A DNA stretch of 64,000 bases, from contig CAXXFL010000006.1 in assembly GCA_963674965.2 (NCBI GenBank), positions 384,001-448,000 of the forward strand, written 5' to 3'. Positions 13,277 to 48,812 of the stretch are shown in pieces (the first letter of the stretch is position 1; each line of letters starts with the position of its first letter). This DNA is from a bacterium (lineage in GTDB: Bacteria > RBG-13-61-14 > DATKZS01). The position numbers and the translations under genes were made by a program. The notes beneath the pieces are model-generated. The model was not told where the DNA came from and did not search any database. It saw nothing but the letters and a program-made list of their open reading frames with translations.

Positions 13277-13401
13277 GCCCCTTATGGCCATGAATGACTA
13301 AACCATATAAATATTCTTTTTTTTCAAGATGATATGGAAACTAAGACGGACTTGGGATAGAAAAAGGTTAGGCTGAAGTTAACAAAAAGTGAAAATAGAG
13401 A

Positions 13402-13586
13402 AAGCCTCTTGAAAAACCCCCGCTTTGGAGTGCGGCGGCTCGACGCCGCTTTTTTCCCGAGCGGCTTGACGCGAGGCTCTCCGTTGTATTTTCAGGCCTT
13501 GTCAAGCCAAGGCCATCGAAAGCGGTCTCAAGCGACCGACTCTCAAAGCGGCTATGCCGCCAAGAAAAGGACTTATCAAGAAGCAC
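13402..13586. repeat. ~185-bp REP-doublet MITE, copy A (inverted relative to B and C)
   Basis: Aligns end to end with 17684-17869 and 46454-48089; core GGAGTGCGGCGGCTCGACGCCGCTTT; imperfect terminal IRs. Confidence 0.9.
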
Positions 13587-13629
13587 ATAGAAAGTAAAGC
13601 GGAACTGCATGGTTGGCATAAGGCCCCGG

Positions 13630-15312
13630 TCATTTCTTCCGCTTGAAAAATCCCCCCTTTTTGGATTGGGAGTCGGCCTTTTCCTTTTGTCTCCAGATTA
13701 TCTGCAGTTCCCGCTTGACGTCCACGTCGTGAGGCTTCATGTCAGCGGCCTTGGCGAAGTTCTTCTCCGCCTCGTCCAGACGGCCGTCGTTTTTGAAAAT
13801 AACGCCGAGGAAATAATAGGCGTCGGCCAGTTTCGGGTTCTTTTCCATGGCCTTCTGGATCGTGTTCTTGGCCTTCATGGCGGACGGATGTCCTTCAAGC
13901 CTGTAGTCGGCCCAGGCCAGATACATCTGGTACTCGATTTCCTCGGGCATCAATTTAACCGATCTTTCAAGCAGTTCCTTGGCCGCTTTCCAGTTCTTCG
14001 AGCGCAGCATGGCCTCGGCCCGCTGGAACTCGACTTCAGCCTCGATGGCGCGGGAGGCCTTCTCCATGTCGGCCTTGCTGACGTTGGCGTCAAGGTCCTT
14101 GACGTACTGAGCCTTGGCCCGGTCGTCGCTGAGGACCTTGTAAGCCTCGCTCACCATTGTAAATAAATCCTCCACCTCATCCTTGACCTTGCCCTTGTAA
14201 AGGTCCGGACGGGCGTCGGGATGGAATTTCTTGGCGAACTTGAAGTATATCTGTTTGATTTTCGAGGCCGAAGAATTACGCTCCACTCCCAAAAGGTCGA
14301 AAAAGTTCTTTTTCGAGTCCTTTCCCATTTCGAGCATGGAACTGATTTGTTTCAATATCTCGTCGTTTGAGAGGTCCTTGTCAAGGACGTCCTCGATGGG
14401 GAGCTTGGTATCGTCTTTCTTGCGCGCGCCCTCAGCCTTGGCGGCGTCTTTCGGTTTCGATTCCTTGGTGTCCGTGTCCTTCTTTTCGATCACGGGTTTG
14501 GGAGGAGGAGCGGCCTTGGGCTCGTGGGCCCTGGGACCGGGGAAATTGTTTTCTCCCTCGGGAAGCATTAAAAGGTCGGCGAAAAAGAAAGCCAATAAAA
14601 GCGCCTCGGCGTCGTCCTTGCCCAGGGGCGAGGTCTTGACAAGGTTGGCGAAGCTGAATTTCTCCGGAGCCTCTCCAAGCCATTTCATGGTCTTGGCCGA
14701 GCAGCCGAAGGCGCCGAGAGAGTCCTCAAGCCCGGGAGCGGCGGAAAAAGTTTTCCGCTCGATATCGGGATATTCCTTCTTGACGCGGGCGGCCGGATAA
14801 TGCTCCCTTACCCCCTCCAAAAGCAGCTGGCCGGGAGCGATGGGAATAAGGGCGTGCTTTTCCATCAGCGACTCGGGGTCCTGGTCCTTGAACTCGTAAA
14901 ATCCCTTGATAAGGGCGAACAGGTTCTTGATCTTCAACCCTACCTGTCGGGTGACCAGATCGGGAAGCTCGGAGGGGCTGACGACCGCGCCGGTCATGAT
15001 CTTTTGCTCGATCTTTCCGTAATCTCCGCCCGCCTCGGCTTTTAGTTCCTCGTTTTCTTTGGGCGTTATTTTTCCGAGTGAAACCAGAATCTCGCCAAGG
15101 GTCTCATGGACCGATCCGCCCTGCACCGCGAAGGCGTCTCCGCCGCTGATGATAACGCGCTTCAATATCTTACCGCCCTCGGCCCTGGATTTGTCGCGCA
15201 CGTCCAGAAACCCCGAGCGACGGTCAAGGCATATCGAGTAGAAAACCCGGGCAAAGGGTATGTCCCTTAAATCTCCCGAGTCGGGAATTATTTCACTTAC
15301 TTCGGCGGCCAA
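13630..15312 (-). CDS. DUF4388-like + DnaJ (J-domain) + TPR protein
   Basis: FFDLLGV...AKKFHPD J-domain, C-terminal TPRs (ADAYYFLGVIF), ETLGEILV N-terminal domain. TTG 15312 follows GAGGACAGGA (ORF opens at 15408). Confidence 0.8.
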   Translation of the reverse strand: MAAEVSEIIPDSGDLRDIPFARVFYSICLDRRSGFLDVRDKSRAEGGKILKRVIISGGDAFAVQGGSVHETLGEILVSLGKITPKENEELKAEAGGDYGKIEQKIMTGAVVSPSELPDLVTRQVGLKIKNLFALIKGFYEFKDQDPESLMEKHALIPIAPGQLLLEGVREHYPAARVKKEYPDIERKTFSAAPGLEDSLGAFGCSAKTMKWLGEAPEKFSFANLVKTSPLGKDDAEALLLAFFFADLLMLPEGENNFPGPRAHEPKAAPPPKPVIEKKDTDTKESKPKDAAKAEGARKKDDTKLPIEDVLDKDLSNDEILKQISSMLEMGKDSKKNFFDLLGVERNSSASKIKQIYFKFAKKFHPDARPDLYKGKVKDEVEDLFTMVSEAYKVLSDDRAKAQYVKDLDANVSKADMEKASRAIEAEVEFQRAEAMLRSKNWKAAKELLERSVKLMPEEIEYQMYLAWADYRLEGHPSAMKAKNTIQKAMEKNPKLADAYYFLGVIFKNDGRLDEAEKNFAKAADMKPHDVDVKRELQIIWRQKEKADSQSKKGGFFKRKK

Positions 15313-15550
15313 GTCTATCCTGTCCTCGCCGACTATAATGCCAAATATAACCTGGAAAATCAATACGATCCGACGCCACGCGGTTTGGCGTTCAAAGGAA
15401 CGCCGCAAATTTGCGCTCCCGGAGAGGGGAAGCGGGGCCCTTTCCGATTACTGAACAAAAGATGAGACCGCGGGAAATCCGGCTCACTGGCTCCGCCCTT
15501 GCCGATCATGATAAAATATCCGGAGGTTTCGATCAGCGGGACTGATTCGC

Positions 15551-17638
15551 ATGAAGAAAAAAGATCGCCCACAAACAAAAGACGCGAAAGGGGGCCGGAA
15601 AAAGGCGCCGGAGAAAAGTCCCCCCCGCGTCAGGGTAAAGGAGGGCTATATCCTGGCGGTGATTTTCCTGCTCGCCTTTTCAGTCCGACTCGCTTGCCTT
15701 ATTCAATTCGACCGAGCGCCCAATTTCGACAATCCCATCGGCGATTCCAACGAGTATTATCAGAGGAGTCTTGCCATCCTTGAGGGAGATATCATCGGCC
15801 AGGAGATATATTTTCACTCTTCACCGCCCTACCCTTATTTCATGGCCCTGATTTTCGCCATTTCCGGCGGGAGCTTTTTCGTCTTAAGGCTCGTCCAGAT
15901 ACTTATCGGCTCGGCCAATTGCGTCCTCATCTGCCTTTTGACCAAACGGCTCGCGCCCTCGAGCCGGGCCGCTCCGGCGCTGGCCGGGATATTAGCGGCC
16001 CTTTACGGCGTGCTGGCCTTTTTCGACCTCGATCTTCTGATGATATTCATGACCCTCTTCCTGGTTGACGCCTGTCTCCTTCTGCTCATCAGGGCGCGGG
16101 AAAGCGGCGGCCCGGCCACGACTTTCCTGGCGGGCGCCCTACTCGGCCTCGCCGCGCTGGACAAGACCAACCTCCTTGTGTTCGCGCCCCTCGCGGCCTG
16201 GTACCTGGCGGGGGATTTCTCGCTCAACTTCATGCAATGGAAATGGTCCCGAGGTTTCATCCTGGCCGCGGGCGTGGTCCTCATGATTCTTCCCGTTACC
16301 ATTCGGAATTACGCCGTGGGAGACGATTTCGTGCTCGTTTCCTCCAACGCCGGCGTGAACCTCTTCATCGGCAACAACCATGAAGGCAGGGGCATCTTCC
16401 TCTTGCCCCCAAGCTCGGGGCTGCGCAATACCGACCTGCCCGGGACCTCGATCGAGGTGGCGGAGAAGGCCCTGGGAAGGTCGCTCAAACCCTCGGAGGT
16501 ATCCGGCTTCTGGGCCGAAAAGGCTTGGGAATTCATCCTCCGAAATCCCCTCGAGGCGTTAAAACTGATTGGCCTGAAGGCGGTGCTCCTTCTCGGTTCC
16601 TTCGAGATTCCGAACCACCTCAACTTCTACTTCATGCGGCAGGATTACGTCGGCGCCTATAAATTTCTGCCCGCGGGATTCTGGCTGGTGGTCCCCCTTG
16701 GACTGGTGGGTATCTTCTGGCGCCGCCAAACCGGATTTACCGGACCCGACCGGCTCCTTGCCGGATTCCTTGTCGCCTATACCATCTCGATCCTTCCCTT
16801 CTTCATCACCTCCCGGTACCGACTGCCCATGATACCGGTCCTGATCGTCTTCGCCTCGGCGGCCCTGGTTGACTGGATATCCAGGGCCCGAGAACTGGGT
16901 CCGAGAAAATTGGCCCCCTGGGCCTTGGCCCTTATCCTCGTCTTCGCCTTTGTCAACCGCCCACAAACCAGCTTCAGCTACGGCTTCAACCGCGTGGTCA
17001 TGGCCAACAAGTACCTGGAACGCTCGCTCAAGGACAAGGACGGCGACCAGGGACGGATGGACGCGGTCAGGGCCATTGTCGAGTTCAAGCGGGCCCTCGA
17101 GACCGACCCCTTGTCCACCGACGCGCATTACAACCTGGGCCGGGCCTACGAGATGGTGGGTTTCTACTCGGGCGCGGCCCGGGAGTGGGAGGAAACCCTG
17201 AAGATAGACCCGGGCATCGAGTTCGCGGCCGGCGCCATCGAAAGCGTGAGGCCCAAGCTGGCCTCGGGAGGCGACAGAATCCCCGCCGACGCAATCCCCA
17301 AAACGCCCTACGAGACAGCGGTGATCGAGGAATCGAGGGGGAACGGGGCCCTGGCGCTCGATATGTACGGAAGGATCATTCGGGACGACCCTTACCACTT
17401 CATGGCCATGAACAACATGGCCTACCATTACTATCAAAGGGGCGACCTGAAAAAGGCCGTCAAGTACTTTGAAAAGGGACTTGCGATAAAGCCCGACCAT
17501 TTCTTCATGCTCAACAACCTGGCCGGGGCCTACTACAAACTGGGTGAAAAGGAAAAGGCAGAGGAGCTATGGCAAAAATGCCTCGCCATCCAGCCGGACA
17601 GCGAGTTGATCCTGAATCAACTCAAGATGGTATTGTAA
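15551..17638 (+). CDS. GT-C (GT39-like) membrane glycosyltransferase with C-terminal TPRs
   Basis: GDSNEYY, PPYPYF, VTIRNY, GVNLFIGNN, SRYRLP, TPR motifs (AHYNLGRAY, NNLAGAYY). Confidence 0.8.
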   Translation: MKKKDRPQTKDAKGGRKKAPEKSPPRVRVKEGYILAVIFLLAFSVRLACLIQFDRAPNFDNPIGDSNEYYQRSLAILEGDIIGQEIYFHSSPPYPYFMALIFAISGGSFFVLRLVQILIGSANCVLICLLTKRLAPSSRAAPALAGILAALYGVLAFFDLDLLMIFMTLFLVDACLLLLIRARESGGPATTFLAGALLGLAALDKTNLLVFAPLAAWYLAGDFSLNFMQWKWSRGFILAAGVVLMILPVTIRNYAVGDDFVLVSSNAGVNLFIGNNHEGRGIFLLPPSSGLRNTDLPGTSIEVAEKALGRSLKPSEVSGFWAEKAWEFILRNPLEALKLIGLKAVLLLGSFEIPNHLNFYFMRQDYVGAYKFLPAGFWLVVPLGLVGIFWRRQTGFTGPDRLLAGFLVAYTISILPFFITSRYRLPMIPVLIVFASAALVDWISRARELGPRKLAPWALALILVFAFVNRPQTSFSYGFNRVVMANKYLERSLKDKDGDQGRMDAVRAIVEFKRALETDPLSTDAHYNLGRAYEMVGFYSGAAREWEETLKIDPGIEFAAGAIESVRPKLASGGDRIPADAIPKTPYETAVIEESRGNGALALDMYGRIIRDDPYHFMAMNNMAYHYYQRGDLKKAVKYFEKGLAIKPDHFFMLNNLAGAYYKLGEKEKAEELWQKCLAIQPDSELILNQLKMVL

Positions 17639-17683
17639 GAATAAACGCCCGCCATCTAGCGTAAGATGACGCTTTTGTCACTC

Positions 17684-17869
17684 AAGCTTCATGCAATATT
17701 CTTTTTCTTGGCGTCATAGCCGCTTTGGAGCGCGATCGCTTGAGACCGCTTTCGATGGTCTTGGCTTGACAAGGCCTAGCAAGAAAACGGCTTGCCTCGC
17801 GTCAAGCCGCTCGGAAGAAAAGCGGCGTCGAGCCGCCGCACTCCAAAGCGGGATCGTTGCATGAGGCTC
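17684..17869. repeat. ~185-bp REP-doublet MITE, copy B
   Basis: Same sequence family as copies A and C; ends AAGCTTCATGCAA / TTGCATGAGGCTC; lies between convergent genes. Confidence 0.9.
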
Positions 17870-17870
17870 G

Positions 17871-18074
17871 TTATTCTTCCTTGTCCTTTTCGAAAAGACT
17901 CGAGTAGAAAAGAAGGAACAGCACCAGGTCCACGGCCAACAAGGCCAGGAACCCGATCGAGGCGGGAACCATAATGCCGTCGGTCATGGCCGAGGCGAGA
18001 AAGAATACGCCTATGCCCGCCGCGGCCCCGGCCAGCCCCATCAGCGCCACCTTGCCCAGCCATCCCTTGGCCAT
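17871..18074 (-). CDS. small two-TM membrane protein
   Basis: 67 aa, two hydrophobic helices, starts 2 nt after the kdsD stop. Confidence 0.6.
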   Translation of the reverse strand: MAKGWLGKVALMGLAGAAAGIGVFFLASAMTDGIMVPASIGFLALLAVDLVLFLLFYSSLFEKDKEE

Positions 18075-44813: not shown

Positions 44814-45230
44814 TTACGCCATCAGGTCCTCGGGCTCGACTCCCAGCGCTTTGGCCAGTTTGCAGGCGCACGATTTCGTGACCTTTTTGTCTCCCGCCTC
44901 GATTTTCTCGAGGTGAGACCTTGAGAAACCCGAGAGGCTGGACAACTCGTCCAGGCCCAGTCCGGCCTGAAGGCGCGTATATTTGAGCGGACAGCGCCCG
45001 AGTTGTCGGCAAAGGTCATCGTGCTCGATGACCTCCTCGTCCCGGTCGAGGCCGCCGGCTTGCTCATACTCGCAAAGGTCCACGTAGTCCTCCAGGTCTT
45101 CCATCAGCCTCTCCCAAACCTCCATGGGCACGATCACCGCCCGCTCGGTCCCTACCCTTATCTCCTGCACGCCCGAGGGCCAGGCCGGCCTTTTCCGTTT
45201 CTCTTCCTTCCCGGTCTTTTGCTTCGCCAT
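44814..45230 (-). CDS. antitoxin with C-terminal XRE HTH (HigA-like)
   Basis: AVIVPMEVWERLMEDLED N-region; RLQAGLGLDELSSLSGFSRSHLEKIEAG...KLAKALGV HTH; 4 nt after toxin. Confidence 0.85.
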   Translation of the reverse strand: MAKQKTGKEEKRKRPAWPSGVQEIRVGTERAVIVPMEVWERLMEDLEDYVDLCEYEQAGGLDRDEEVIEHDDLCRQLGRCPLKYTRLQAGLGLDELSSLSGFSRSHLEKIEAGDKKVTKSCACKLAKALGVEPEDLMA

Positions 45231-45234
45231 TAGG

Positions 45235-45498
45235 TCACCTCTTATACACGTCTCCGCGGGGCCTGATAAGGACCACGAGGATGATCATTTCTCCATCCCT
45301 TAGCTCGAATATGATTCTGAACGCCCCGGCCCGGAGCCTGTAGGCGGGGCGATAGGCCAGACGCTTGACGCCGAGGCTCGGAGAAAAGGGGTCCTCAGCC
45401 AGGCGCTCGATCCGGTCCAGAATTTTTTCTCTTCGCTCCCCGGTCAGGCGCTTTAAATAGGAAACCGCCCTCTTCCTGTATCTTACCGAGTAAGCCAT
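45235..45498 (-). CDS. RelE/ParE-family toxin
   Basis: MAYSVRYRKRA, GVKRL, YRLRAGAFRIIFE, IRPRGDVYK; 87 aa, very basic. Confidence 0.9.
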   Translation of the reverse strand: MAYSVRYRKRAVSYLKRLTGERREKILDRIERLAEDPFSPSLGVKRLAYRPAYRLRAGAFRIIFELRDGEMIILVVLIRPRGDVYKR

Positions 45499-45505
45499 GA
45501 GGGAG

Positions 45506-45534
45506 ATTATGCCCGAGGATGATGGGCGGGTCAA
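45506..45534 (-). promoter_or_regulatory. promoter of the TA operon (leaderless toxin mRNA)
   Basis: TTGACC, 17-nt spacer, CATAAT, then 7 nt to ATG 45498; no SD. Confidence 0.6.
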
Positions 45535-45556: not shown

Positions 45557-46441
45557 CTACTCCGGTCCGGCCCAGAAGGCGGAGATCATGGTGTAGATAA
45601 GCGAAGCCGCGGTGAAGCTCGCGTGGTGAAGACACTTGATGGGCGCCATCTCCATCACGTCGAAGCCGACCACCTTCCTGCCCGAGGCCGACAGGGCCAG
45701 GACCAGGTCGATAATATGGTAGTAGTCGAGTCCTCCCGGCTCGGGCGTTCCCGTGGCGGGCATGATCGAGGGGTCAAGGACGTCCACGTCCAGGGTCAGG
45801 TAGACCTCCTTGCCCAGGGGGGCCAGGGTCTTTTCTATCCAGTCGTCCCGCTTCATGACGTAGCTCGCCGGAATGACCTCTTTTTGATTTTCCTCGAGCC
45901 AGTCCCTTTCGGCTTGTGACATGGACCTGATCCCGACCTGGACGAAGTCCATTCCCATGTCCGCGACCCTTTTCATTACGCAGGCGTGGGAGTGGGCCGT
46001 TCCCTCATAGGAGTCCCGAAGGTCGGCGTGAGCGTCGAGCTGGAGCACGCAAAGTCCAGGATGAAACTCGAGACAGGCCGCCGCGGCCCCGGCCGTAAGG
46101 GAGTGCTCGCCGCCGACGGTCACGGGATACTTGTCTGATTTTAAATGCCGGGTCACTTCCTCTTTCACCGCCTGAACGGCCCCTTCCGGTTCCTCGTGCA
46201 TCTTGATGGGAGGAACGCCGTGAATGCCGATCTTGTAGGCTTCCCTTTTAGTGGTGAAGTCGTAAAGCTCGATATTGGGCGAGGCCTCGAGGATGGCGTC
46301 GGGTCCGTTTGCCGTGCCTTCCTTCCACGATACGGTCCCCTCGTAAGAGGCCGGAATAATTACTACTTTAGACGTTTCGAGGTCGCGATATGGAGACTTC
46401 AGCCCAAACCACGCCTCGGGTGTTTTATTTATTTTGCCCAT
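45557..46441 (-). CDS. speB: agmatinase
   Basis: GGEHS, LDAHADL, SHAC, GIRS, DVDVLDPS, TGTPEPGG. Confidence 0.95.
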   Translation of the reverse strand: MGKINKTPEAWFGLKSPYRDLETSKVVIIPASYEGTVSWKEGTANGPDAILEASPNIELYDFTTKREAYKIGIHGVPPIKMHEEPEGAVQAVKEEVTRHLKSDKYPVTVGGEHSLTAGAAAACLEFHPGLCVLQLDAHADLRDSYEGTAHSHACVMKRVADMGMDFVQVGIRSMSQAERDWLEENQKEVIPASYVMKRDDWIEKTLAPLGKEVYLTLDVDVLDPSIMPATGTPEPGGLDYYHIIDLVLALSASGRKVVGFDVMEMAPIKCLHHASFTAASLIYTMISAFWAGPE

Positions 46442-46600
46442 TTATTGTCTCCCGAGATTCTTGCAAAAGTCCTTATTCTTGGCGGCATAGCCGCTTTGGA
46501 GCGCGGTCGCTTGAGACCGCTTTTAATGGCCTTGGCTTGACAAGGCTTAATACAGAGGCTTGCCTCGCGTCAAGCCGCTCGGAAGAAAAGCGGCGTCGAG

Positions 46601-48048
46601 TGTACAGACCGGAGACATGCTTCACAAGTGTTCGGGCACATAGGTAACATATTTCCTCGCTTGCTCGCGCTCCTGCTATTGACCTATTTTTCCTCGACCT
46701 AAGTTTATCTATGCATCGATCACGTGGCCAGTCAAGGGCGGCGCAGCCGTCCCGCAGGGATTTACCCTTGACGGGCCTCGTGGAGATGCTATCGTCCTCA
46801 TGGTCGAGAAAACCTTTTATCACGTTTGCCTCCAGCTATGGTCTCGCAGATCGACGACCATGATCCGTTGGCGGCAGTAATAAACCTCGATCACGCCGTC
46901 CACTTGTGTATTTCGCAAGCCGACCTTTTCACCAACGAAGGCCCGCCCCACTGGATAAAACTCGCCTTTGATTCTAACCGCCCCGCCCGGGTTCACCTTG
47001 CAAGTCGGCCAATCATCCCGATACCAGACTTCGGGCAGAGTCTCGGGATAGGCAAAGGGGCTCATCGCGTAACGGCTGGCCGGCGTGTTCATGTCCAGGG
47101 CCTCGTGGGGACGTTCATGGTTATAGCAGTCGCGAAAACGGTCGAAGGCTTTCTGACAGTCGTTCAGGTCGCCGAAGTTGCGTCCCCTTATCGCCTCCTC
47201 CTTAAGGGTCCGGTTGAACCGCTCGTTCTTGCCCTGGGTCTGGGGATGAAAGGGACGGCCGTGGCTGATGCCGACGCCGAGCCTGATCAGCCAGGCGCTC
47301 ATGTAGTTGTAACGCGAGTTCGGCGCGCAGAAGCTCGATCCGTTGTCGGTAAGTATGCGGCTGGGCAGGCCGTAGCGCATGAAGACCGGCGCCAGGCTTG
47401 CCCGCACGGTGTCCGCCCGTTCGTTGGAGCAGGCGGTGACCGTCAACGCGAACCTGGAGTGGTCGTCCACCACGGTGAGAGGGTGACAGGAACCGGCCGC
47501 CGTCGGAAAATGTCCCTTGAAATCCATCTGCCACAACTGGTTGGGAGCCTCTCGTTCGAAACGCTTCATGGGACCGCGAGCCTTGCGCTGGGCGTCCCGC
47601 AGCCTGCCGTTGCGGTCGAGGATCGCCGTGATCGTGCTCGGCCTTGGCACTTCGTCGTGACCAAGATCGATCAGCCGCCGCTCGATTTTGCGCCCTCCCC
47701 AGGTCGGATGCTCGTCGCGAACCGAAAGCACCAACTGCTCGACCTCCGGGCAAACACGCTGGGGAGATCGCCTGGGACGGCGGGACCTGTCACATGCCCA
47801 GTCCTCTTCACCGCTTTGCCCACGGCTGATCCACTTGTAGCCGGTGCGGCGACTGATACCGAATCGACGGCATAACTCGCTTATGTTGGAACCTGGCTGC
47901 ATCGCTAAATAAACAAAATCCTTCCTCTGAGACACTTCGGTAACCTCATTCCATGGCATCTTTCTTCTCCTGTATTGACATACAGAAGAATGTACCAACT
48001 GTTACCCATGTCTCCGAACACCTGTTACCCATGTCTCCGGTCTGTACA
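46601..48048 (-). mobile_element. IS481-family insertion sequence, 1448 bp, apparently intact
   Basis: TGT...ACA ends; 19-bp perfect IR TGTACAGACCGGAGACATG extending to ~49 bp imperfect; CGAG duplication (46597-46600, 48049-48052). Confidence 0.95.
46820..47959 (-). CDS. IS481 DDE transposase
   Basis: MPW..., LCRRFGISRRTGYKW HTH, WQMDFKG, VDDHSR, TDNG, HPQTQGKNERFNRTLK, YNHERPHEAL; AGGAG RBS before ATG 47959. Confidence 0.97.
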   Translation of the reverse strand: MPWNEVTEVSQRKDFVYLAMQPGSNISELCRRFGISRRTGYKWISRGQSGEEDWACDRSRRPRRSPQRVCPEVEQLVLSVRDEHPTWGGRKIERRLIDLGHDEVPRPSTITAILDRNGRLRDAQRKARGPMKRFEREAPNQLWQMDFKGHFPTAAGSCHPLTVVDDHSRFALTVTACSNERADTVRASLAPVFMRYGLPSRILTDNGSSFCAPNSRYNYMSAWLIRLGVGISHGRPFHPQTQGKNERFNRTLKEEAIRGRNFGDLNDCQKAFDRFRDCYNHERPHEALDMNTPASRYAMSPFAYPETLPEVWYRDDWPTCKVNPGGAVRIKGEFYPVGRAFVGEKVGLRNTQVDGVIEVYYCRQRIMVVDLRDHSWRQT

Positions 48049-48096
48049 CGAGCCGCCGCACTCCAAAACAGGACTTTTGCAGGAGGCTCTCCCGAT

Positions 48097-48137
48097 AAAA
48101 AAAGCGGACGGCGGTCGCGAGAGGGACCACCATCCGC
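48097..48137 (-). terminator. intrinsic terminator downstream of pdaD
   Basis: 13-bp stem GCGGATGGTGGTC/GACCGCCGTCCGC (two G-U pairs) followed by T7 on the minus strand. Confidence 0.8.
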
Positions 48138-48149
48138 CCTACCCTTCTT

Positions 48150-48692
48150 CTACATTACAAAAACGGCCGCCGCCACCGCCGTGGTCCATCGGCCCGACTC
48201 GTCGCCCTTGGCCGAGGCGGTCATATGCCGGGCAAGAAGCCGTGTCTTGCTAAGCACATAGACGCCGTCTTTCTTTTGCGGCGGCAGGTCATGATCGAAC
48301 GAATCGTCGATAAGTGACGCCAGCATGGCCACGGCCATCCTCTCGGAATCCCTGGCCGCTTTTTCCTCGCCGAGTCCGACGCCGGCGTGCTCGGATAGGT
48401 ATCCGTGTTTGATCCGGTCCTCCGGGTAGGCCAGGCCAATGGACGCGGCGATGGGTTCGCCCGCCTGGTTGGTCTGGGTCCTGGCCATGACGCAAAAGGT
48501 GATCTGTCCGTCTTTGAGTTTTTTCTTTCCCTCCTCGGGCCCGATTATCTCGCAATCGGGCGGCAGAATACTGGATACCAGCACCAGGTTGCAGCCTGAA
48601 ATGCCGGCCTGGCGAAGCGCCATCTCGAAACTCACGAGCTTGTCGGCGTGGGTCCCCACGCCCTTGGTCAGAAACATTTGTTTGGGGATCAA
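48150..48692 (-). CDS. pdaD: pyruvoyl-dependent arginine decarboxylase
   Basis: FLTKGVG, SFEMALRQAGI, NLVLVSSILPP (S-S cleavage), GYLSEH, WTTAVAAAV; TTG 48692 after GGAGGAGG. Confidence 0.9.
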   Translation of the reverse strand: MIPKQMFLTKGVGTHADKLVSFEMALRQAGISGCNLVLVSSILPPDCEIIGPEEGKKKLKDGQITFCVMARTQTNQAGEPIAASIGLAYPEDRIKHGYLSEHAGVGLGEEKAARDSERMAVAMLASLIDDSFDHDLPPQKKDGVYVLSKTRLLARHMTASAKGDESGRWTTAVAAAVFVM

Positions 48693-48719
48693 CTGTGTAA
48701 TCCTCCTCCCCGCCACTGG

Positions 48720-48812
48720 AATTAAAACGGCGGCCCTTCTCCCCCGGCTGATCGTCAGGGGAGGGCCGCTGTCATTTGGGCCTATGATAATGCCGGAAAG
48801 CGCGCAAATCAA
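48720..48812 (-). promoter_or_regulatory. pdaD promoter and structured leader
   Basis: TTGATT, 17-nt spacer, TATCAT (48812-48784); hairpin 48727-48772 followed by TTTAATT. Confidence 0.55.

Follow-up and report, generated by a model that had tools for sequence, protein, structure and literature searches.

An insertion sequence (IS) of the IS481 family, found between pdaD and speB, is very probably site-specific. Its target is the centre of an 18-bp palindrome that in this genome exists almost only as a hairpin internal to a MITE. Insertion at the same four base pairs in nine of nine copies, the divergence of the host MITEs, the presence of 57 empty MITE copies, and the placement of 24 control insertions of other IS outside the MITE together point to target specificity, and not to chance, selection, or common descent. 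The window analyzed here is a 64,000-nucleotide stretch of one bacterial contig, and positions are given within this window unless a contig or locus is named.

The IS481-Family Element

The element is 1448 bp in length (46601..48048, minus strand) and is one of nine near-identical copies in the genome. It contains a single ORF, the 379-aa transposase gene (46820..47959, minus strand; protein P0001), identified by ORF call, Pfam, and the NCBIfam IS481 model NF033577. The protein has an N-terminal HTH/leucine-zipper region followed by a DDE (rve) core, and its Pfam matches are rve, rve_3, HTH_32, and LZ_Tnp_IS481. With NF033577 the score is 277.6 bits (cutoff, 224), which places the element in the IS481 family; the IS3 model scores 138.4 bits, below its cutoff of 160.

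A self-match of positions 1-49 of the IS to positions 1400-1448, with 85.7% identity, defines the terminal inverted repeats. The left repeat (46601..46649) is 49 bp long and imperfect, with the first 19 bp perfect, and the right repeat (48000..48048) contains a doubled CTGTTACCCATGTCTCCG motif. The IS starts with TGTACAGACCGGAGACATG, and the exact reverse complement is located at 48030-48048 (two matches, none expected by chance). Both inverted repeats open with TGTACAG. The target-site duplication is CGAG, with the left copy at 46597..46600 and the right copy at 48049..48052. Members of the IS481 family, as described in ISfinder, have one transposase ORF without a programmed frameshift, inverted repeats starting with TGT, and a short duplication. 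The element shows each of these traits as one 379-aa ORF, 49-bp TGTACAG repeats, and a 4-bp duplication.

When the IS is excised and one CGAG is dropped, the 26-mer GCGGCGTCGAGCCGCCGCACTCCAAA is restored, base for base as in two empty MITE copies of the window. The uninterrupted 26-mer lies at 17822-17847 (plus strand, copy A) and at 13424-13449 (minus strand, copy B), with two matches found and none expected. This restoration had been proposed in the preliminary description and is exact, and the coordinates given there for the IS, the MITE, and both duplications all hold.

The Host MITE and Its Hairpins

The IS splits a MITE that spans 46454-48089 and is 184 bp in length without the IS and one CGAG. 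The left part (46454..46600, plus strand) is 147 bp long, carries the terminal inverted repeat GAGATTCTTGCAAAAGTCC, and terminates in the target palindrome's left arm and loop. The right part (48049..48089, plus strand) is 41 bp long including the second CGAG, and contains the palindrome's right arm together with the terminal inverted repeat of that end, GGACTTTTGCAGGAGGCTC. The MITE is itself flanked by a TCCC target-site duplication. The left copy (46450..46453) reads GGGA on the minus strand and is part of the speB ribosome-binding site (RBS) GGGAGA, and the right copy is at 48090..48093.

Two further copies in the window, copy A (17685..17869, plus strand) and copy B (13399..13595, minus strand), have the target palindrome uninterrupted. 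The family has 57 empty and nine occupied full-length copies in the genome, which amount to about 0.3% of 6.5 Mb. Of the 64 copies that were measured, 48 are 186 bp long and 37 are surrounded by a perfect 4-bp duplication. The terminal inverted repeats are of the GAGCTTCTTGCAAAAGTC type. Many copies are 98-100% alike. The family is classed as a MITE family on the grounds that its members are short, non-coding, and multicopy, have terminal inverted repeats and a duplication, and share their ends with a parent IS. This parent-type IS is 1373 bp long, has the terminal inverted repeats of the MITE, and carries a 390-aa ORF resembling IS1182/IS5 transposases at scores below the curated cutoffs. It is present in two copies (G000:C6:305099-306471, which is locus L093 200-1572, and G000:C1:87746-89118). 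The MITE family likely derives from this IS5/IS1182-like element. An Rfam search of the two empty copies (window 13300-18000) gave no match at E values up to 1, so the MITE does not correspond to a known RNA family.

The predicted fold of the MITE is a long structure with five GC-rich hairpins. Only the last of the five is occupied by the IS. It is an 18-bp GC-rich palindrome composed of the arm GCGGCG, the loop TCGAGC, and the arm CGCCGC, with a predicted fold of six pairs and a six-base loop. The 18-mer has 55 uninterrupted occurrences in the genome; the MITE context was determined for its 12-mer core, which occurs 61 times, 59 times inside the MITE and twice outside it, both of the latter empty. 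The target had been described earlier as a REP hairpin. Its form is REP-like, but a REP in the strict sense is a short, free-standing palindrome that is itself dispersed in many copies, which the hairpin is not. Strict REPs are often linked to a RAYT transposase. It is best called REP-like because it is found almost solely inside the MITE.

Nine Copies at One Position

A BLAST search of the assembly (6.5 Mb, seven contigs) with the IS identified nine full copies that are 99.86-100% identical, with four variable sites in all and at most three between any pair. All nine come from this one assembly and represent surviving insertions. In the copy at G000:C4:18276-19722, one base pair is missing at IS position 229, within the final codons of the transposase gene.

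In all nine, a member of one MITE family is interrupted at an identical 4-bp position. Whichever way the IS is oriented, and although the MITE copies have diverged, the flanks are GCGGCGT[CGAG] and [CGAG]CCGCCGC (duplication in brackets) as predicted. Relative to the MITE, four copies are oriented one way and five the other. The duplication is CGAG on both sides in seven copies and CGAG/CAAG in one. The remaining copy (C4:240990) has CAAG on both sides, meaning that a variant target was itself duplicated. The preliminary description had suggested from the single window copy that this IS481 element targets a REP palindrome, that recurrent flanks would support this, and that random flanks at other copies would refute it. 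The genome-wide count bears the suggestion out, as the predicted flanks recur at every copy and random flanks at none. An arrangement in which 100% of copies occupy the same repeat position, which permits definition of a target consensus, is termed a "type 1 association" in the accessible text of Tobes and Pareja (2006, PMC1525189). The present element, at nine of nine, is of this type.

A DNA search for the IS across 40 relatives, four of them from the same family, found it only in the window's own genome. A second IS481-type element was sought in this genome by tblastn and none was found; the next-best matches are 26% identical rve proteins.

Separate Insertions and Alternative Explanations

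The nine host MITE cores differ pairwise at 0-25 positions. For seven of the nine, the nearest relative is an empty copy. The other two (C5:401202 and C3:274460) are an identical pair and are each other's nearest relative. Their MITE cores, their IS, and the relative orientation are the same, and their outer flanks differ. The corresponding MITE::IS composites are 1638 bp in length and lie at G000:C5:401161-402798 and G000:C3:274311-275948. This nested composite may have arisen from one insertion and then moved as a unit. Due to this pair, the number of insertion events is counted as at least eight rather than nine.

The pair raises the wider possibility that all nine copies trace back to one or two original insertions, after which the MITE::IS composite was spread by the transposase of the MITE's parent or by gene conversion. 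The MITE appears young enough to be mobile, given the many copies that are 98-100% alike and the two copies of the parent IS. However, the two orientations of the IS (four versus five) cannot be obtained from one insertion by either route. The host MITE cores other than the identical pair are 3-25 positions apart, against no more than three sites between any two IS copies, and the closeness of seven hosts to empty copies indicates that occupied MITEs are scattered among empty ones. The CAAG variant duplicated on both sides of one IS copy also speaks against spread from a common insertion. With two orientations, a variant target that was duplicated, and hosts that have diverged, neither descent nor gene conversion can be the main cause, and we regard this explanation of the whole set as very unlikely.

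Random insertion followed by the loss of gene insertions, with copies left in neutral DNA such as the MITEs, is less probable still. Only survivors are visible and the MITEs are non-coding, as this explanation would have it. Selection cannot, however, bring nine copies to a single 4-bp site in an element of 186 bp, and the MITE copies make up a very small portion of the genome. As controls, two further rve-type IS from this genome were examined. Neither the 1661-bp element (0 of 21 full copies) nor the 1618-bp element (0 of 3) is found in or beside a MITE. Their 24 copies occupy 24 different non-MITE sites with flanks that are mutually unrelated. Outside the MITE, no IS was found at the shorter palindrome cores CGTCGAGCCG (138 occurrences) and GTCGAGCC (748 occurrences). 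Because the control IS avoid the MITE and the palindrome cores elsewhere are empty, loss of harmful insertions is ruled out as the explanation. The genome as a whole is rich in IS, and several copies of the 1661-bp element (for example, C6:330789-332450) cluster at 330-346 kb of C6 and 35-61 kb of C2.

An assembly artefact, in which one collapsed IS repeat was placed into several MITE copies, is hardly credible even though repeats are the usual source of misjoins and the assembly has seven contigs, since each copy is set in outer flanks and a MITE variant of its own, with duplications that match, and the IS depth in Logan contigs is 8.2 and 8.5 times that of the flanks in two runs that may be the sample of origin. 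This depth fits nine copies and is used here as a consistency check only. Two joints in the run contigs that skip 1452 bp were considered as an empty allele of the window locus and rejected, as their letters and outer flanks differ; both stem from other empty MITE copies.

The speB-pdaD Interval and Order of Events

The intact speB-like agmatinase gene (45557..46441, minus strand; 294 aa; Pfam Arginase, 1.7e-63) and pdaD, the gene for a pyruvoyl-dependent arginine decarboxylase (48150..48812, minus strand; Pfam PvlArgDC, 1.6e-52), have the same direction as the transposase gene between them. Downstream of pdaD is a terminator-like hairpin with a T run (48101..48140, minus strand). It is composed of 16 pairs followed by seven T, with a predicted fold of -12.5 kcal/mol. 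The order on the minus strand is pdaD, the terminator-like hairpin, ATC, GGGA, the MITE with the IS, and GGGAGACAATAA-ATG of speB. The preliminary description has the MITE landing at the speB RBS, behind the pdaD terminator, with duplication of TCCC, and base-level reading confirms this. The duplication rebuilt GGGAGA in front of speB. The gap between the two genes is 1708 bp, of which 66 bp is left after both elements and their duplications are removed. Just downstream of speB are two small overlapping ORFs (44814-45534, minus strand) of 138 and 99 aa. By eye, the 99-aa product resembles a RelE/ParE-type toxin and the 138-aa product an HTH antitoxin, and both assignments are putative.

The two events had been ordered with the MITE first and the IS second. 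This order is supported, as the IS interrupts the MITE. It is also favored by the near-identity of the IS copies, with their four variable sites. This MITE copy has at least 14 differences from every other copy, which likewise bears on the order.

Relatives in the same family and order conserve the pdaD-speB arrangement, with gaps of about 8, 40, 210, and 235 bp at four loci and about 1.1-1.2 kb at two. An empty pdaD-speB allele was sought in these relatives, and their speB sequences, at 37-62% identity, are too distant for an empty site to be recognized at the base level.

Proposed Targeting Mechanism

Within the six-base loop TCGAGC, it is the central four bases, CGAG, that are duplicated, which implies staggered cuts centered on the axis of dyad symmetry between the arms. 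The two symmetric arms would position the DDE (rve) transposase complex, so that the two strand transfers fall 4 bp apart around the dyad. Because of this symmetry, insertion is possible in either direction, which accounts for the two orientations. Hairpin shape alone cannot be the signal, given that only one of the five MITE hairpins is used. Base-specific reading of the loop or arm sequence is presumably added to the placement by the arms, because the four other hairpins are never hit. The site may be read as duplex or as an extruded hairpin.

The IS481 family is related to the IS3 family, which moves by copy-out-paste-in. The element studied here probably moves in this way as well. At the window locus, the likely sequence of events is that the MITE first inserted downstream of the pdaD terminator, ahead of the speB RBS, and that its hairpin later received the IS. 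The MITE copies would thus serve the IS as gene-free landing pads.

Palindrome-Centered Insertion Among Transposase Relatives

The closest transposases on record have 75-63% identity and are on contigs too short for site analysis. A scan of genome contigs gave 80 loci in many phyla with 44-52% identity, and relatives overall have 44-55%. Plasmid matches with a named annotation were ISRm20 and ISEc19. ISEc19 is yagA of E. coli K-12, and in that strain the sequence CCCCTCTCCCCTTTGGGG adjoins the yagA relic at its left end.

The IS ends of the relatives were placed by a motif-scoring heuristic. A first end-finder ran into the flanking palindromes and was replaced by these motif-scored ends. Sixty-six of the 80 genome loci were usable; 12 were dropped for weak ends or flanks shorter than 30 bp and two had no end found. 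A site was counted as palindrome-centered when the duplication lay inside a perfect palindrome with arms of at least 7 bp and a loop of at most 12. This was the case at 51 of 66 genome loci versus 119 of 2640 control windows, which were taken from the loci's own flanks and not matched for intergenic position, so the palindrome baseline may be set too low; loci of the same assembly are not independent. At least one palindrome-centered locus is present in 39 of 50 assemblies. The duplications of the relatives are mostly 5-6 bp (47 of 66), compared with 4 bp for the window IS. A metagenome set of 80 loci, 30 of them dropped, gave a duplication in a palindrome at 25 of 50 usable loci versus 23 of 940 controls, with 30 of the 50 lacking a duplication, possibly on chimeric short contigs.

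In three other genomes, the same repeat is both empty and occupied. A Nitrospirales MAG has 26 motif copies, and among the 12 listed seven are empty and five occupied, in both orientations. A Dehalococcoidia MAG has 119 motif copies, with 16 empty and four occupied among the 20 listed. Among 11 listed in Paraburkholderia xenovorans LB400, nine are empty and two are occupied.

An arm pair, CCCTCTCCC and GGGAGAGGG, is common to 25 of the 66 insertion sites of the relatives and to 16 of 2640 control windows. The loci with the shared arms are L013, L014, L017, L027, L033, L035, L036, L040, L041, L043-L046, L048, L049, L063, L064, L066-L068, L071, L073, L077, L084, and L089. Their hosts belong to the Alpha-, Beta-, and Gammaproteobacteria, the Chloroflexota, and the Acidobacteriota. 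Six loci (L024, L035, L017, L151, L157, and L218) have no direct duplication, and perfect inverted flanks of 19-31 bp abut their IS ends. These inverted flanks may be assembly fold-back in short metagenome contigs; L035 and L017 are on contigs of 0.9-2.2 Mb.

We place at about even the chance that palindrome-centered insertion is the general targeting mode of a phylum-spanning IS481 clade with TGTAYAGACCGGRGACAT-type ends. This TGTAYAGACCGGRGACAT-ended clade would take in the annotated ISEc19 and ISRm20 families, with an IS481-family element of Pseudomonas fluorescens SBW25 as a probable member.

Comparison with Known Systems

The SBW25 element is the closest known parallel. Ngan, Parab, Bertels, and Gallie (mBio 2024, PMC11708052) describe, in the text accessible to us, an IS481-family IS of P. 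fluorescens SBW25 that inserts at one REP position and is present in four copies, with a further copy acquired in the laboratory; its inverted repeats measure 49 bp and its duplication 4 bp. The palindrome- or REP-targeting kind of IS481 element is therefore already known. The preliminary description listed REP-targeting IS of the IS3 and IS110 families; its entries stand as precedents, and the list lacked this direct one (PMC11708052). The two elements share the family, the 49-bp inverted repeats, and the 4-bp duplication. They differ in size, at about 1.28-1.3 kb for SBW25 versus 1.45 kb here, and in target, which according to the same text is free-standing REPs and REPINs in SBW25 versus the internal hairpin of an IS5-like MITE, of other sequence, in the present genome (PMC11708052). 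The window IS is documented here with nine copies in both orientations. The two elements likely belong to the same clade, to which the SBW25 element is assigned as a putative member. The term NCTAGN does not occur in the accessible text of the SBW25 report (PMC11708052).

REP targeting is listed for the IS3, IS110, IS4, IS256, and IS5 families by Tobes and Pareja (2006), in whose accessible text IS481 is unmentioned (PMC1525189). A 2026 niche paper in ISME J mentions IS481 solely for juxtaposition to coding sequences. A search of the openly accessible main-text literature on IS481 in connection with REPs or palindromes, and on ISEc19 and ISRm20, returned the SBW25 report only.

IS1397 and ISKpn1 of the IS3 family resemble the window IS in having rve DDE transposases, in inserting specifically into repeated palindromes (the palindromic units of BIMEs), and in having a short duplication. 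Their insertion point is the loop of the palindrome. Unlike the window IS, they belong to another family, have a two-ORF frameshifted transposase, and target enterobacterial REPs. The transposases themselves are apparently responsible for specificity of this type, according to the accessible text of PMC1525189. The same text describes ISRm22 (IS4 family, Sinorhizobium meliloti) as 100% palindrome-associated and inserting at the palindromy axis, as the window IS does (PMC1525189). ISRm22 differs in belonging to an unrelated DDE family and in the length of its duplication.

All copies of ISPpu9, ISPpu10, ISPa11, and IS621 (IS110 family) are at one REP position, like those of the window IS. IS110 elements usually leave no duplication. 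IS481 of Bordetella pertussis, the type element, is in the same family as the window IS by NCBIfam and Pfam. Its target is a short 6-bp palindromic site and is not known to be a repeated hairpin. For IS110-family insertions in REPs, the accessible part of PMC1525189 gives 7 of 7, 7 of 7, and 6 of 6 (Table 2). IS110 elements further differ from the window IS in using a DEDD-type recombinase and, according to the same text, in mostly lacking terminal inverted repeats (PMC1525189).

Significance

Against this background, the present genome provides a second and stronger case of such targeting by IS481, in a distant and poorly sampled lineage, and adds a MITE hairpin as the target of an IS481-family IS. 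There is also an indication, beyond the SBW25 paper, that the habit is widespread in the clade. The system is a clean natural example of strict target choice by a DDE transposase, in which 57 sites left empty and 24 insertions by other IS types serve as an internal control within one genome. At the window locus, the nested elements part speB from pdaD by 1.7 kb, and expression of the polyamine genes may change. More generally, one mobile element uses another as a harmless landing pad and multiplies without breaking genes.

More than 100 natural transposase-target pairs are available as material on how an integrase-like DDE enzyme reads its target. If the pattern seen in the relatives holds, the habit is common to a large and widespread IS481 clade. 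This would explain why such IS often adjoin REP-like repeats, and the pairs could be used for studying, and perhaps re-using, site-directed integration. If the clade-wide reading is true, each lineage would be tuned to a repeated palindrome of its own host, and dyad symmetry or an extruded hairpin would place both strand transfers. In that case, the clade would have its standing niche in REP-like repeats and MITE hairpins.
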